Assembly (NCBI GenBank): GCA_965242485.1
Contig: CBDESM010000003.1
Span: forward strand, 1,549,362-1,613,361
Direction: 5' to 3'
Length of the DNA stretch: 64,000 bases
Origin: Dehalococcoidia bacterium
GTDB lineage: Bacteria; Chloroflexota; Dehalococcoidia; Bin125
Shown here one piece after another: positions 30,436 to 45,055 of the stretch (its first letter is position 1; every line of letters starts with the position of its first letter). The notes below the pieces were generated by a model. The model did no database searches. It was not told the DNA's origin and saw only the letters and a program-made list of their open reading frames with translations. Position numbers and translations under genes: made by a program.

Positions 30436-30530
30436 GCCACGAGTTGATGCCGGGGTGGTCCGCTTGAGGCGGGCCTGAGAGCACACCCGCTGAACCTGAT
30501 CCGGGTAATGCCGGCGCAGGGAGCGTTCCA
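30436..30530 (+). promoter_or_regulatory. TPP (THI-box) riboswitch
   Basis: GGGGUG ... CUGAGA ... ACCC ... GAACCUGAUCCGGGUAAUGCCGGCGCAGGGA matches the THI-element consensus directly upstream of thiD. Confidence 0.75.
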
Positions 30531-30544
30531 GGTCCGCCCGCAGC

Positions 30545-36157: not shown

Positions 36158-36179
36158 GCGCGGCGATTGTCCATGCCGG

Positions 36180-36297
36180 CTCGCGCGTGCTCACGCTTAT
36201 CATTGAGGGACCGGACGAGAAAGGCCGCTGGCATATCGTTACCGTGTTCCCAACCAGCAACGCTGCCGACCTCGATCGCTACTGGCGATCCCGATAG
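36180..36297 (+). pseudogene. Remnant of the 3' end of a brnT-like toxin gene
   Basis: Frame encodes RVLTLIIEGPDEKGRWHIVTVFPTSNAADLDRYWRSR, which aligns to the C-terminus of the BrnT-like protein at 42308-42625; no N-terminal half. Confidence 0.35.
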
Positions 36298-36317
36298 GGC
36301 GAAGAACGCGTACTCCG

Positions 36318-36569
36318 ATGCACGACCCCGACGATCCCGACGCTGAGTTCTACGAAGACGATGACGATGTGGAAATCGTCCTCGGCGGGCCGCCGCTCTG
36401 GGGGTTCGAGGTCTTCTTCGAAGACGACGAGTTTGAGCGCCTGCTCCGCATGCAAGGCGACTCCGGCGGCAAATTCAACGTCTTCATCCATGACATCGCG
36501 ATGCGGGCGCTGGCCGAGTGGGAAGCCGGCGCGGCCGACCGTCCAGCGCCGGTCACCGCGGCCGACTGA
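36318..36569 (+). CDS. Orphan BrnA-like ribbon-helix-helix protein with acidic N-terminus
   Basis: C-terminal KFNVFIHDIAMRALAEWEA aligns with NRYLKDLAMRAIEEWQA of the three paralogs at 42642-43547. Confidence 0.45.
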   Translation: MHDPDDPDAEFYEDDDDVEIVLGGPPLWGFEVFFEDDEFERLLRMQGDSGGKFNVFIHDIAMRALAEWEAGAADRPAPVTAAD

Positions 36570-41789: not shown

Positions 41790-41846
41790 GCATCTGATAC
41801 CCCGGACGCAAAGCCGGGCTGCCGCGTACTCGCGCCACAAGAGGAG

Positions 41847-42183
41847 GTTGGTGGCCCGGGGCAGAGTCGAGCTGCCGGCGCCGCGCCTCCGGCAATGGCA
41901 GCCAGTGCCTGCTCGCATCGCAAGCGGAAAGGTTGGTGGCCCGGGGCAGGGTCGAACTGCCGGCACCACGCCTCCGGCAATGGCAGTCAGTCGTGTGCTG
42001 GTGGCGCAAGTGGGAAAGGTTGGTGGCCCGGGGCAGAGTCGAACTGCCGGCACCACGCCTTCGGCAATGGCAGTCAGTCGTGTGCTGGTGGCGCAAGTGG
42101 GAAAGGTTGGTGGCCCGGGGCAGAGTCGAGCTGCCGGTGCCGCGCCTTCGGCAATGGCAGTCAGTCGTGTGCTGGTGGCGCAA
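41847..42183 (-). repeat. Four tandem ~87-bp repeats, each containing a degenerate tRNA-Phe 3' portion (T-arm plus acceptor plus CCA)
   Basis: Unit starts at about 41847, 41921, 42008, 42095; each carries GGCAGTTCGACTCTGCCCCGGGCCACCA on the minus strand. Confidence 0.6.
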
Positions 42184-42259
42184 GTGGAAAGGTTGGTGGC
42201 CAGGGGCAGAGTCGAACTGCCGACACCACGATTTTCAGTCGTGTGCTCTACCAACTGAG
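42184..42259 (-). tRNA. tRNA-Phe (anticodon GAA)
   Basis: Cloverleaf; anticodon loop CTGAAAA; T-loop GTTCGACTC; CCA encoded. Confidence 0.85.
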
Positions 42260-42307
42260 CTACCTGGCCGCGGGCACCAATCATACAGTGCAGCGGGAGG
42301 CCGAGTG

Positions 42308-42625
42308 ATGCCGCCGGACGTTGACGAGCTGGATTGGAGTGCCGACATTCCGTCGAAGCTCGGACGACACGGCTTGACGACCGACGATGCGCAGGACGTG
42401 TTCAGAATCCGTCCGCTGCTCGCGTGGCAGAAGGAGGAATGGCAGTTGGGAGACGATGGACTGCTCCGTCTGAGGCCTCGACGCGTCAGGATGATCGGCC
42501 CTGACTACTCGGGGCGCTTCCTGACGTTTATCCTTGAAGCACCGGACGATCGTCGCGTGTCACAGATCGTCTCGGGCTGGCCGGCTACGCGGCGCGACAT
42601 CGCCCGCTACCGCCGAGCCAGATGA
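42308..42625 (+). CDS. brnT: BrnT-like (DUF497) toxin of a type II toxin-antitoxin module
   Basis: GRHGLTTDDAQDVF and GRFLTFILEAPDDRRVSQIVSGWPATRRDIARY resemble the BrnT family; toxin-first gene order. Confidence 0.55.
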   Translation: MPPDVDELDWSADIPSKLGRHGLTTDDAQDVFRIRPLLAWQKEEWQLGDDGLLRLRPRRVRMIGPDYSGRFLTFILEAPDDRRVSQIVSGWPATRRDIARYRRAR

Positions 42626-42641
42626 TCCGCGCGACTGCACA

Positions 42642-42929
42642 ATGACCGACTACGACGACTGCATCTGCCCGAATGACAGCAGGGACCACCTCCCCCACTG
42701 CGCCTTCGCCGATGAGGACCAATGGGAAGAGGGCGAGATCATCGAAGGCAAGACCGTGAGGATGCATGTGCGCGCCGTTTTCGAAGGCGACGAGTACCGC
42801 GCTTTCTCGGCGATGATGCGCGCGAACGGCGAGTGGCATCCCAACCGCTATCTCAAAGACTTGGCGATGCGCGCCATCGAGGAATGGCAGGCAGTGCCGC
42901 AGCACTCTGCCGTCGCGGAGGGCGACTGA
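42642..42929 (+). CDS. BrnA-like ribbon-helix-helix antitoxin paralog 1 with Cys/His-rich acidic N-terminal extension
   Basis: DDCICPNDSRDHLPHC N-terminal segment, C-terminal RHH (KTVRMHVRAVFEGDEYRAFSAMMRANGEWHPNRYLKDLAMRAIEEW). Confidence 0.5.
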   Translation: MTDYDDCICPNDSRDHLPHCAFADEDQWEEGEIIEGKTVRMHVRAVFEGDEYRAFSAMMRANGEWHPNRYLKDLAMRAIEEWQAVPQHSAVAEGD

Positions 42930-42935
42930 CCGGGC

Positions 42936-43232
42936 ATGCCTGCTACCGCTGATCCGGGCTGTCGTCTAGACGACTGCATTTGCCCGGCAGACAGACGGGA
43001 TCACCGGCCCGATTGCCCGTATTCCGATATCGGGCTCTGGGACGACGAAGAAGATGGCGTTGGCATGATCGTACGGGTCCCGTTCGAGCAGCAGCAGTAC
43101 GGCGCGCTCCGCGCGATGATGCGCGCGCATGGCGAGGACAACCCCAACCGTTTCGTTCGAGACATGATGCTCCGCGCTATCGAGGAATGGCAGGCGGTGC
43201 CGCCGCACTCCGCCGTCGCGGAGGGCGACTGA
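42936..43232 (+). CDS. BrnA-like antitoxin paralog 2 (diverged copy)
   Basis: DDCICPADRRDHRPDC ... MIVRVPFEQQQYGALRAMMRAHGEDNPNRFVRDMMLRAIEEW. Confidence 0.5.
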   Translation: MPATADPGCRLDDCICPADRRDHRPDCPYSDIGLWDDEEDGVGMIVRVPFEQQQYGALRAMMRAHGEDNPNRFVRDMMLRAIEEWQAVPPHSAVAEGD

Positions 43233-43238
43233 CCGGGC

Positions 43239-43547
43239 ATGGCCTCCGCTGTTGATCTGGAAGATCGCCTAGACGACTGCATCTGCCCGAATGACAGCAG
43301 GGACCACCTCCCCCACTGCGCCTTCGCCGATGAGGACCAATGGGAAGAGGGCGAGATCATCGAAGGCAAGACCGTGAGGATGCATGTGCGCGCCGTTTTC
43401 GAAGGCGACGAGTACCGTGCTTTCTCGGCGATGATGCGCGCGAACGGCGAGTGGCATCCCAACCGCTATCTCAAGGACTTGGCGATGCGCGCCGTCGAGG
43501 AGTGGCAGGCGGTGCCGCCACATTCCGCTGTTGCGGAGACTGATTAG
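43239..43547 (+). CDS. BrnA-like antitoxin paralog 3 (near-identical to paralog 1)
   Basis: Near-identical DNA to 42650-42930. Confidence 0.5.
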   Translation: MASAVDLEDRLDDCICPNDSRDHLPHCAFADEDQWEEGEIIEGKTVRMHVRAVFEGDEYRAFSAMMRANGEWHPNRYLKDLAMRAVEEWQAVPPHSAVAETD

Positions 43548-43554
43548 CGGGGGC

Positions 43555-44250
43555 TCAGGGCTCGCGCATGCTGGCTACTACGGGGGCGGCCTTGGCGCGG
43601 ACTTGGTCGAAGACCTCTTCGACCGAGCCGCGGGCGTCGACTACGTCGAAGCCGTAGCGGTCCGACATTTCGCGGAACTCGGCGATCATCTTGCCCTGGT
43701 GTTGCACGAACGCGTCGTGGATCGACGCCCCCTGCAGGTAGTCGCCGCCCGACTCCCAGTAGTCGAACCCGCGCTCCAGCACCCGCAGCACGAGCTGATC
43801 GACGTCGATGTCGAGGTAGATCACCTGGTCCGGCACCAGCGCGAACGAGTAGACGTCTTCCAGCCAGGCCCGCGGCGCACCGCGCACCGTCGCGCGCGCG
43901 ATCAGCGAGAAGATGTAGCGGTCGACCAGCGCAACCATGCCCGCGCGCAGCGCCGGCAGCACGATCCTCTCGAAGCGGTCCCAGAAATCGGTCGCGTAGA
44001 ACAAATTCAGCGTGATCGGGTCCAGCGTGTGCCCGCGCTTGGCCCGCTCGATCCCCGGCCCGACCAGCGGCGAGCGCCGCAGGCCGCTGTCGACGACGCC
44101 GAACCCTTCCGCCTCGAGCCATTCCTTCAGCAGCGAGATCGCGGTCGAGCGGCCCACTCCGTCGGTGCCCTCGATCACGATCATCCGGCCCGGCAGGTCG
44201 GCCGTGCCGACGCCCGGCGGCGGGTCGCCGTAGAAGCGCAGGTCGGTCAT
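43555..44250 (-). CDS. Thymidylate kinase-like P-loop kinase (paralog 2)
   Basis: P-loop IEGTDGVGRST and DRY lid motif; tandem with a paralog. Confidence 0.55.
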   Translation of the reverse strand: MTDLRFYGDPPPGVGTADLPGRMIVIEGTDGVGRSTAISLLKEWLEAEGFGVVDSGLRRSPLVGPGIERAKRGHTLDPITLNLFYATDFWDRFERIVLPALRAGMVALVDRYIFSLIARATVRGAPRAWLEDVYSFALVPDQVIYLDIDVDQLVLRVLERGFDYWESGGDYLQGASIHDAFVQHQGKMIAEFREMSDRYGFDVVDARGSVEEVFDQVRAKAAPVVASMREP

Positions 44251-44260
44251 CGCGCCCGCC

Positions 44261-45055
44261 TCACGATCGCGTCTCGCGGCGCGCGCCGACATCGGGCAGG
44301 TACACCCCTTGCAGCCCCGTCGCCTTGAGCAGCTCCGGGATCTCGTGCGGCTGCCGCCGCGGCAGCCCTTCCAAGTGCGGCGCCACGATCGCCCGCAGCT
44401 TCGCCTGCTGCGCGACGAGCGTGTCGGTCGCGTCGATCCGCTGGATGTCGAACTCTTCGCACAGCGCTTCGTACTCGGCCACGATCCGGCCTTGGAAGAT
44501 GCGGAACGATTCGACGATGTCCTCGCTCAGCCCCATGTCGAGGCCGGCTTCGTAGTACTGGATCGCCTCCCGCGCCGACGAGATCCGCGAGATCGATTCC
44601 TCCAGCGGCACGTCGAAATAGAACGCCAGCGTCGGCGGCACCGCGAACGAGTACAGATCGCGCACCCAGCCGCGGTTGACCCCGCGCGCCGCATCCCGGG
44701 CGAACGCGGTGTAGACGTAGCGGTCGGCCAGCACGATCACGCCGGATTGCAGCGCCGGCAGGATCTGCTCGTAGGTCCGCGAGGCGAAGTCGGCGGCGTG
44801 GATCAGGCTGAAGCTCATCGGCGTCAGCAGCCGCCGCCGCTTCCCCCGCCGCGTCGTGCCGCGCACGATCGGGGCCGAGTTCCAAGTCGTGAAGACGGTG
44901 ACGTAGCCCTCGGCCCGCAGCCATTTGTGCAGCAGGTCCAGCTGCGTGCTCTTGCCCGAGCCGTCGATTCCCTCGACGACGATCAACTTGCCGGGCAGCG
45001 CCGAATGGTCGACATCGGCCGGATGGGGCATCCCGGTGCCGGCGTGCTGGGTCAT
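44261..45055 (-). CDS. Thymidylate kinase-like P-loop kinase (paralog 1)
   Basis: P-loop VEGIDGSGKST and DRY motif. Confidence 0.55.
   Translation of the reverse strand: MTQHAGTGMPHPADVDHSALPGKLIVVEGIDGSGKSTQLDLLHKWLRAEGYVTVFTTWNSAPIVRGTTRRGKRRRLLTPMSFSLIHAADFASRTYEQILPALQSGVIVLADRYVYTAFARDAARGVNRGWVRDLYSFAVPPTLAFYFDVPLEESISRISSAREAIQYYEAGLDMGLSEDIVESFRIFQGRIVAEYEALCEEFDIQRIDATDTLVAQQAKLRAIVAPHLEGLPRRQPHEIPELLKATGLQGVYLPDVGARRETRS

Follow-up and report, generated by a model that had tools for sequence, protein, structure and literature searches.

A divergent BrnT-like gene and three tandem antitoxin-like genes at a polymorphic chromosomal site in uncultured Chloroflexota

In the BrnT/BrnA toxin-antitoxin (TA) system of Brucella abortus (Pfam PF04365; structures 3U97 and 7VD7), the toxin gene comes first and encodes a protein of ~100 amino acids (aa), whose RNase activity needs residues D6, E7, K9, R41 and E78 (review, PMC5086665). 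Its partner BrnA has a C-terminal ribbon-helix-helix (RHH) domain (PMC11980606). A toxin-first arrangement of the same kind is found at positions 42308-43547 (+ strand) of a 64,000-nucleotide (nt) stretch of contig CBDESM010000003.1, from the genome of an uncultured Dehalococcoidia bacterium. This whole stretch is called the window below. A gene for a 105-aa BrnT-like protein is followed here not by one small gene but by three. The site appears to be a small recombination hotspot rather than the place of a simple fresh triplication, because related loci carry one, two or three antitoxin-like genes. We consider it fairly probable that the locus is a chromosomal type II TA-like operon, in which a diverged BrnT-superfamily toxin is followed by RHH antitoxins of two types in the order A-B-A, at a site that exchanges cassettes and gains or loses units.

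Two other groups of systems are relevant to the comparison. MqsA, the antitoxin of the MqsR/MqsA pair, has two zinc-binding CxxC pairs, located in its folded N-terminal domain, and in place of an RHH domain a helix-turn-helix (HTH) domain. Extra neutraliser genes without a toxin of their own are familiar as orphan antitoxins and anti-addiction modules, and from the orphan toxin-tip/immunity arrays of contact-dependent inhibition (CDI) and Rhs loci. In MqsA, zinc occupancy and oxidation gate degradation by ClpXP (PMC8808172).

The four genes and the BrnT-like protein

The window open reading frame (ORF) list has four intact ORFs on the + strand at the locus, a toxin-like gene and three consecutive small paralogs, as the original prediction had described them. 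Handles beginning with L denote loci in other assemblies and those beginning with P individual proteins.

42308-42625, + strand: toxin gene, 105 aa, type A, placed in a divergent branch of the BrnT/DUF497 superfamily by hhalign against BrnT proteins
42642-42929, + strand: small protein copy 1, type A, 95 aa, with orthologs behind the toxin gene of L001-L005
42936-43232, + strand: small protein copy 2, type B, 98 aa, typed by identity to the L006 gene
43239-43547, + strand: small protein copy 3, type A body, 102 aa

The intergenic gaps along the operon are 16, 6 and 6 nt. Copy 1 starts 16 nt past the toxin stop codon and, because copies 2 and 3 each start 6 nt past the preceding TGA, their translation is probably coupled to that of the gene before. 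The three paralogs are in frame and recur with a period of 303 nt, and as they also have homologs in other assemblies, the pattern lies far beyond chance.

The relationship of the 105-aa protein to BrnT emerges when whole families are compared. The reference alignment consisted of seven plasmid proteins annotated 'BrnT family toxin', and its profile matches the BrnT structures 3U97 and 7VD7. Against this reference, the window toxin family scored a probability of 90.6% in hhalign, and 95.8% (E 7.6e-9, 94 aligned columns, full length) after more distant toxin-family members had been added. Since 30 column shuffles reached at most 2.9%, with reversed and unrelated controls below 1%, the protein is best regarded as a real but far-diverged member of the BrnT/DUF497 superfamily. 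BrnT was also the best sub-threshold Pfam match in three of seven toxin-family members, and in the window protein this match spans profile positions 9-75 of 77. The protein shares gene order, length and full-length profile homology with BrnT, and its predicted strand-helix-helix-strands-helix order is compatible with that of BrnT. Its dN/dS against orthologs is 0.16-0.28.

Variation at the site and the two types of small gene

Relatives were sought among 5.8 billion protein clusters with a word index and, by exhaustive HMMER search, among 1.84 billion representatives. The word-indexed search returned eight relatives of the small protein and four of the toxin, and 21 with a broader profile. HMMER with the small-protein profile gave two hits only among the representatives, the family itself and a distant 80-aa relative (P0014), and no relatives of the small protein were present in GTDB species genomes or JGI metagenomes. 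The original prediction had pointed to related genomes as the place to look for single or multiple antitoxins, and there loci with toxin and A, with toxin and B, with toxin, A and B, with disrupted toxins and with nothing at all were indeed found, all at the same chromosomal site as the window module:

L001-L005: toxin A and a type A small gene
L006 and L007: toxin allele P0012 (63% identical) and a type B small gene
L016: type A toxin with TAG at codon 10, then A and B
L017: third toxin type, then A and B
P0002/P0003 and L015: toxin with an in-frame deletion, fused to A
L022: empty site, 80 bp between the thymidylate-kinase-like (tmk-like) gene and tRNA-Phe

Because the site is empty in L022 and the GC content of the module (0.61-0.65) is lower than that of its flanks (0.67-0.74), the module appears to have been inserted between tRNA-Phe and the tmk-like gene in one narrow lineage of uncultured, Dehalococcoidia-like Chloroflexota. 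Ffh encoded in the window shares 76-77% identity with Ffh of metagenome-assembled genomes (MAGs) labelled Chloroflexota or Dehalococcoidia. The flanks of L016 and L006 are 96.8% and 99.3% identical, whereas toxin and first small gene are only 70.6% identical; cassettes have evidently been exchanged between near-identical strains.

The toxins in these loci are not always intact. In L016 (979-1260) a premature TAG replaces the Trp codon at position 10 and both downstream small genes are intact. In L006 (4211-4549) the P0012 allele lacks the usual stop codon, reads through the intergenic region, adds KRQQRRRR and ends in an ATGA overlap with the small gene. Toxin decay beside an intact small gene thus takes three forms: the stop codon in L016, the in-frame deletion in P0002/P0003 and L015, and a 5' truncation in the window itself (36158-36297). 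That the toxin has been disrupted time and again, with the small genes beside it left whole and under constraint, points to a toxin-antitoxin relationship between the two. Movement as a block (the empty site of L022; three genomic sites) and asymmetric toxin decay, the behaviour by which type II TA modules are generally recognized, are both seen.

The truncated toxin belongs to a second, distant family member at window positions 36158-36569 (+ strand; tblastn E 5e-5 and 4e-4). The toxin remnant (...LTLIIEGPDEKGRWHIVTVFPTSNAADLDRYWRSR*) begins right after the stop codon of an upstream NMT1-like gene and is followed at 36318-36569 by an intact small gene, whose 83-aa product has no Cys and ends ...VTAAD.

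The order of the gene pair is constant in at least four diverged types and also at two other genomic sites. One of these, between a radical-SAM/DUF3463 gene and a Glyoxalase_3 gene, holds the type C loci:

L099: 4683-5537
L102: 2305-3131
L103: 4319-5171

In these loci the toxin is followed by a small gene of 79 aa and then by a second one, and between the two small genes lies a scar, 16 codons long, of the toxin 3' end. A frameshift interrupts the second small gene in L099, and that of L102 is intact. L102 and L103 carry a further paralog of 89 aa, and L102 apparently has no toxin. Tandem Gp49 (HigB-like)/dnstrm_HI1420 pairs lie a few kb from type C loci (L099, 9159-9932; L103, 8576-9934), so these genomes would hold several TA-like modules.

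Within the window, copies 1 and 3 are almost identical at the DNA level, as had been noticed at the outset: identity is 96% over 267 nt (42654-42920 versus 43272-43538) and 94% in aa. Copy 2 is 57-59% identical in aa to either. It had been described as a diverged copy and diverged it is, but it does not look like a diverged duplicate. Because copy 2 is 84% identical in aa (86% in DNA) to the type B gene of L006, the sole partner of toxin allele P0012, it is an old second type and not a decayed duplicate. Its identity to genes in three other assemblies is 83-84%, and dS between types A and B, at ~0.95-1.6, is saturated. In the window copy 2 has no type B toxin beside it. The three copies are real, but they represent two old types and one recent homogenization rather than the tandem amplification originally proposed.

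The recent event is seen in the distribution of differences between copies 1 and 3. There is one difference in the first 201 nt (42654-42854 versus 43272-43472), and 12 of the 13 differing codons lie within the last 75 nt. The 3' end of copy 1 and the junction after it resemble those of copy 2; the 3' end of copy 3 and its downstream flank are of the 'terminal copy' kind, as in single-copy loci. The 5' extensions of copies 2 and 3 are far more diverged from each other than the 201-nt tract. Because the near-identical tract sits beside these much more diverged extensions, the pattern fits an older array in which copies 1 and 3 have recently undergone gene conversion, duplication or unequal crossover. 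The tract and the two junctions are placed as follows:

43272-43472, + strand: 201-nt tract with one difference from 42654-42854, from the copy 1/copy 3 comparison
42930-42974, + strand: junction 1 and 5' extension of copy 2, partly like the toxin 3' end and intergenic region (GCTACCGC...TGATCCG...GACGACTGC)
43233-43277, + strand: junction 2 and 5' extension of copy 3, with the same TGACCGGGCATG start as junction 1 and like the A>B junction of L017

Stretches with homology to the toxin 3' end and the intergenic region, all of them short, lie in the internal junctions. The A>B junction of L016 retains a longer stretch of the toxin 3' end than does junction 1 of the window. All small genes and toxins have pairwise dN/dS values of 0.07-0.35, including second-position B copies that have no type B toxin; the value for copy 1 is 0.16-0.26 and that for copy 2 against its B orthologs 0.07-0.16. 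All copies are under purifying selection, and this extends to the N-terminal Cys/His segment discussed below.

The boundaries of the insertion in the window are the following:

42194-42269, - strand: tRNA-Phe(GAA), left boundary of the inserted module (ARAGORN; Rfam, 71.8 bits)
42270-42307, + strand: 38-bp leader with GGGAGG 7 nt before the toxin ATG, by reading of the sequence
43555-44292, - strand: tmk-like gene, oriented towards the array and limiting the insertion on the right (ORF list; Pfam PF02223 on syntenic genes)

The 5' end of tRNA-Phe lies 38 bp from the toxin start codon, and on this layout the toxin promoter must overlap the tRNA-Phe gene. A terminator scan gave a single terminator-like site, inside the toxin gene and within chance expectation.

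Some neighbouring features may be recorded here. The tmk-like gene is one of two adjoining thymidylate-kinase-like paralogs (245 and 264 aa; 43555-45055, - strand), which are kept in all relatives and in the empty-site genome. Adjoining tRNA-Phe on its other side are ~4 tandem 87-bp units derived from it (41845-42192, - strand), in which the D-arm is deleted, 12 nt are inserted in the anticodon loop, and the T-arm, the acceptor 3' strand and CCA are kept; neither ARAGORN nor Rfam calls them as tRNA, and similar units occur in L016 and L001. Further upstream lies a TPP riboswitch (30441-30539, + strand; Rfam RF00059, 66.9 bits), and at some point downstream of it the window has genes that also occur in the syntenic relative L001 (NMT1-like, ABC transporter, TMP-TENI).

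Predicted fold and cysteine-histidine cluster of the small proteins

The original prediction took the small proteins for BrnA-like antitoxins, and here it was not borne out. Hhalign comparison with BrnA gave 0.15% and 0.8%, with scores no better than column-shuffled controls had reached in the toxin comparison. Relaxed settings showed no relationship either, and proteins annotated as BrnA or CopG partners of BrnT did not resemble the small proteins by this method. Pfam has no match for any of the 23 members of the small-protein family; for all four window proteins and the family members, Pfam, NCBIfam, PHROGs and PADLOC returned nothing at threshold, and PDB sequence searches with narrow family profiles returned nothing. 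Membership of the BrnA family is not supported by these comparisons. A weak match of the small proteins to Endonuclea_NS_2 (E 0.03, in 3-4 members) was judged to be due to chance.

The RHH fold, claimed at the same time, stands weakly, through one structural match and two predicted helices, and has no curated family match. The broader 23-member family profile matches HP0222 of Helicobacter pylori (1X93), an RHH dimer from the Arc/MetJ family (PMC6269979), with E 0.0022 over the strand and both helices. In the AlphaFold2 model of copy 1, helices 49-61 and 67-84 have a pLDDT of 74-91 and follow an extended segment, and the N-terminal 24 residues are of low confidence. Because of the HP0222 match and these two confident helices, the C-terminal core is likely to be RHH. 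The predicted core of copy 1 consists of a strand, VRMHVRAVF, and the two helices, and the cores are placed as follows:

42756-42893, + strand: predicted RHH core of copy 1 (residues 39-84), from AlphaFold2 helices and the HP0222 profile match
~43059-43196, + strand: equivalent in copy 2, by correspondence to copy 1
43374-43511, + strand: equivalent in copy 3, by correspondence to copy 1

HP0222 is thus the best match of solved structure among the RHH regulators (Arc/MetJ/CopG), with a shared strand, helix A and helix B, although the match is marginal, structural searches failed and HP0222 has no counterpart of the Cys/His and acidic segments. With BrnA the small proteins share a co-oriented position directly downstream of the toxin in all loci, at a distance of 16 nt here, and, if the weak RHH prediction holds, a make-up of an acidic N-terminal part and a C-terminal RHH-like core. 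They differ from it in having no detectable BrnA similarity, a Cys/His cluster, an invariant C-terminal A-x-x-D and as many as three partners to one toxin. At the position collinear with the toxin-binding segment of BrnA, type B proteins have P-Y-S-D-I-G-L-W and type A proteins A-F-A-D-E-D-Q-W; the former resembles D-Y-S-D-I-P...W of the 7VD7 antitoxin fragment by eye only, without statistical support.

The C-terminal A-x-x-D is present in all 23 small proteins of types A-D, the final Asp being invariant despite only 14-33% identity to copy 1 (window positions 42909-42926, 43212-43229 and 43527-43544). This tail could be a degron or an element that contacts the toxin.

As predicted, each of the three copies carries an N-terminal Cys/His segment, D-D-C-I-C-P-x-D-x-R-D-H-x-P-x-C, within which the cysteines and histidine form a CxCx6Hx3C cluster located as follows:

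42660-42701, + strand: CxCx6Hx3C segment of copy 1 (C7, C9, H16 and C20), from the type A/B alignment
42975-43016, + strand: equivalent in copy 2, by correspondence to copy 1
43278-43319, + strand: equivalent in copy 3, by correspondence to copy 1

The cluster is complete in 15 of 16 type A and B sequences, the remaining one having no second Cys; in copy 1 numbering C7, H16 and C20 are invariant across these types and C9 is nearly so. Types C and D, which are more distant, lack it; it is an addition specific to one clade and no hallmark of the family. It directly precedes an acidic, Trp-containing segment. For the 32 N-terminal codons, pN/pS is 0.05-0.31 among type B copies and 0.05-0.13 in comparisons with window copy 2; against L006 or L016, copy 2 has 15 synonymous and 3-4 non-synonymous differences (pN/pS 0.05-0.07). 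Because these values are low, the N-terminal segment is taken to be translated and constrained. Gene callers often start the small genes at an internal Met (P0023, P0024) and so bypass it.

That the cluster is a metal or redox sensor is a reasonable hypothesis, for which MqsR/MqsA offers a precedent: the toxin gene comes first there too, and Cys ligands lie in the N-terminal part of the antitoxin. The resemblance goes no further, as four Cys ligands and an HTH domain are found in MqsA but CxCx6Hx3C and a predicted RHH-like part here, so that the small proteins do not count as MqsA-like, and no sequence relationship between the two systems was found.

A proposed stacking of antitoxins and the alternatives

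In the explanation we favour, gene 1 would encode a strongly diverged BrnT/DUF497 (RelE-like) protein, presumably an RNase toxin, and genes 2-4 would encode acidic small proteins made up of the N-terminal CxCx6Hx3C cluster, an acidic aromatic segment that may bind the toxin and a C-terminal RHH core for dimerization and DNA binding. They would neutralize the toxin and repress the operon. Type A would be the cognate of the resident toxin, with copy 1 as the presumed cognate antitoxin, and type B the cognate of a different toxin allele found at the same site in related strains. Cassettes would be exchanged between strains, and small-gene units gained or lost by unequal or illegitimate recombination, with a toxin 3'-end scar in every internal unit; a recent homogenization or duplication would have involved ~200 nt of copies 1 and 3. 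Selection would keep the extra copies, most likely as stacked, cross-protecting antitoxins that cover the toxin variants circulating in the population. An added dose of antitoxin is a second possibility.

Several findings, besides the want of any relationship to BrnA, count against this explanation. The call of BrnT-like in the original prediction stands as remote homology, but the direct search with PF04365 does not sustain it, since the 105-aa protein lies below the Pfam BrnT_toxin cut-off (E 0.032; 15 bits versus 34.5); NCBIfam, PADLOC and PHROGs scans of the protein likewise gave nothing at threshold. The AlphaFold2 models are weak, with a pLDDT of 53 for the 105-aa protein and 67 for the small protein, and fold searches returned nothing useful: a Foldseek search of PDB with the pLDDT 53 model gave no match, although its secondary-structure order, E-H-H-E-E-E-H, fits BrnT. 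Only two of the five BrnT RNase residues are kept. D6, E7, K9, R41 and E78 align to S11, A12, I14, R59 and D97, so that R41 and E78 are kept (as R59 and D97) and D6, E7 and K9 are replaced. The W-D-E-x-K N-terminus of BrnT, which is catalytic, gives way in the window toxin family to an invariant W-S-x-D-[IV]-P-x-K, whose D13 and K17 lie nearby and could substitute for the lost residues. Enzymatic activity is plausible but, because three of the five residues are replaced, uncertain. The family is extremely rare and comprises only ~25 sequences in total, nearly all from one ENA metagenome study and a few from Logan runs. No promoter or operator was found, and a promoter scan gave no sigma-70-like site. 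Lastly, with so little length and variation, the scars of the toxin 3' end do not separate stacking of a type B allele from an old duplication in place, and the scar in L016 is more like the type A than the type B toxin end.

A more specific version of the stacking explanation can be put forward only tentatively, and we rate it as possible rather than probable. The locus would be a record of toxin-allele turnover, with RHH antitoxins gated by metal or redox state through CxCx6Hx3C. Addiction would forbid loss of the resident antitoxin, and a toxin allele could be replaced only where the old antitoxin is retained; antitoxin genes still under selection would thereby be stacked, every one behind the scar of some toxin 3' end, and the locus would be an intracellular counterpart to CDI and Rhs loci with their orphan immunity arrays. 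As in those arrays, the extra units are each preceded by a remnant of a toxin 3' end and the locus is polymorphic between near-identical strains. The remnants here differ in being only ~15-20 codons long, the toxin has no sign of secretion, and type B may have arrived by old duplication rather than by displacement.

Four other accounts have to be set against stacking. A simple gain in dosage, by which a single antitoxin gene was recently amplified in tandem and copy 2 diverged in place, would explain the regular 303-nt period, the near-identity of copies 1 and 3 over 201 nt and the almost identical junctions after copies 1 and 2. It is quite unlikely, because copy 2 is far closer to genes in other assemblies (83-84%) than to its neighbours (57-59%), dS between A and B is saturated, A-B arrays with homologous junctions already exist in other strains and a different toxin allele, that of L006, has type B as its only partner. 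Somewhat better placed, though still unlikely, is an obligate multi-antitoxin system in which A and B form heterodimeric RHH complexes, toxin-A-B is the functional unit and the third copy is a spare: B always comes second after A in the three multi-copy arrays (window, L016 and L017), it is under strong purifying selection without a type B toxin, and diverged paralog pairs recur at the type C locus. Loci with intact toxins that have A alone (L001-L005) or B alone (L006, L007) count against this account, as does the covariation of the toxin allele with the first small gene.

A pair that is not a TA system at all, but a non-toxic RNA-binding or RNase protein encoded with metal- or redox-responsive RHH transcription factors that have another target, would accommodate the lost RNase residues and the silence of the curated libraries, and also the fixed chromosomal site and a conserved Cys/His cluster compatible with a sensor. 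We judge this no likelier than heterodimeric antitoxins, given that the toxin has repeatedly been disrupted, by premature stop, internal deletion and 5' truncation, beside an intact small gene, that the two genes are tightly coupled (the 16-nt gap here, the ATGA overlap in L006) and that the module is an insertion of lower GC. Last comes an assembly artefact, which the original prediction had raised against itself and in which variants from different strains, each with a single copy, would have been placed one after the other when the MAG was assembled. The genome is uncultured and has only MAGs as its nearest relatives, samples of the same study contain several allele types together, and three copies occur in no other assembly. 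Even so, this is highly improbable: the inter-copy junctions (TGACCGGGCATG and a new 5' extension) are absent from single-copy loci and recur in the independent contig L017, all copies keep open frames with extensions under selection, the array sits in a 2.6 Mb contig and the assemblies of two other samples independently contain two-copy arrays.

If the stacking explanation is right, the toxin-like protein would represent a far-diverged BrnT branch with a changed active-site N-terminus, and its partners a previously undescribed family of RHH antitoxins. The site provides a natural series of one-, two- and three-antitoxin arrays, together with toxin-less derivatives, at one position in closely related strains, and this series is well suited to asking how antitoxin specificity, cross-protection and addiction shape the replacement of alleles. 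With its Cys/His cluster, the family would then join MqsA as the second case of an antitoxin whose stability or binding could depend on metal or redox state.

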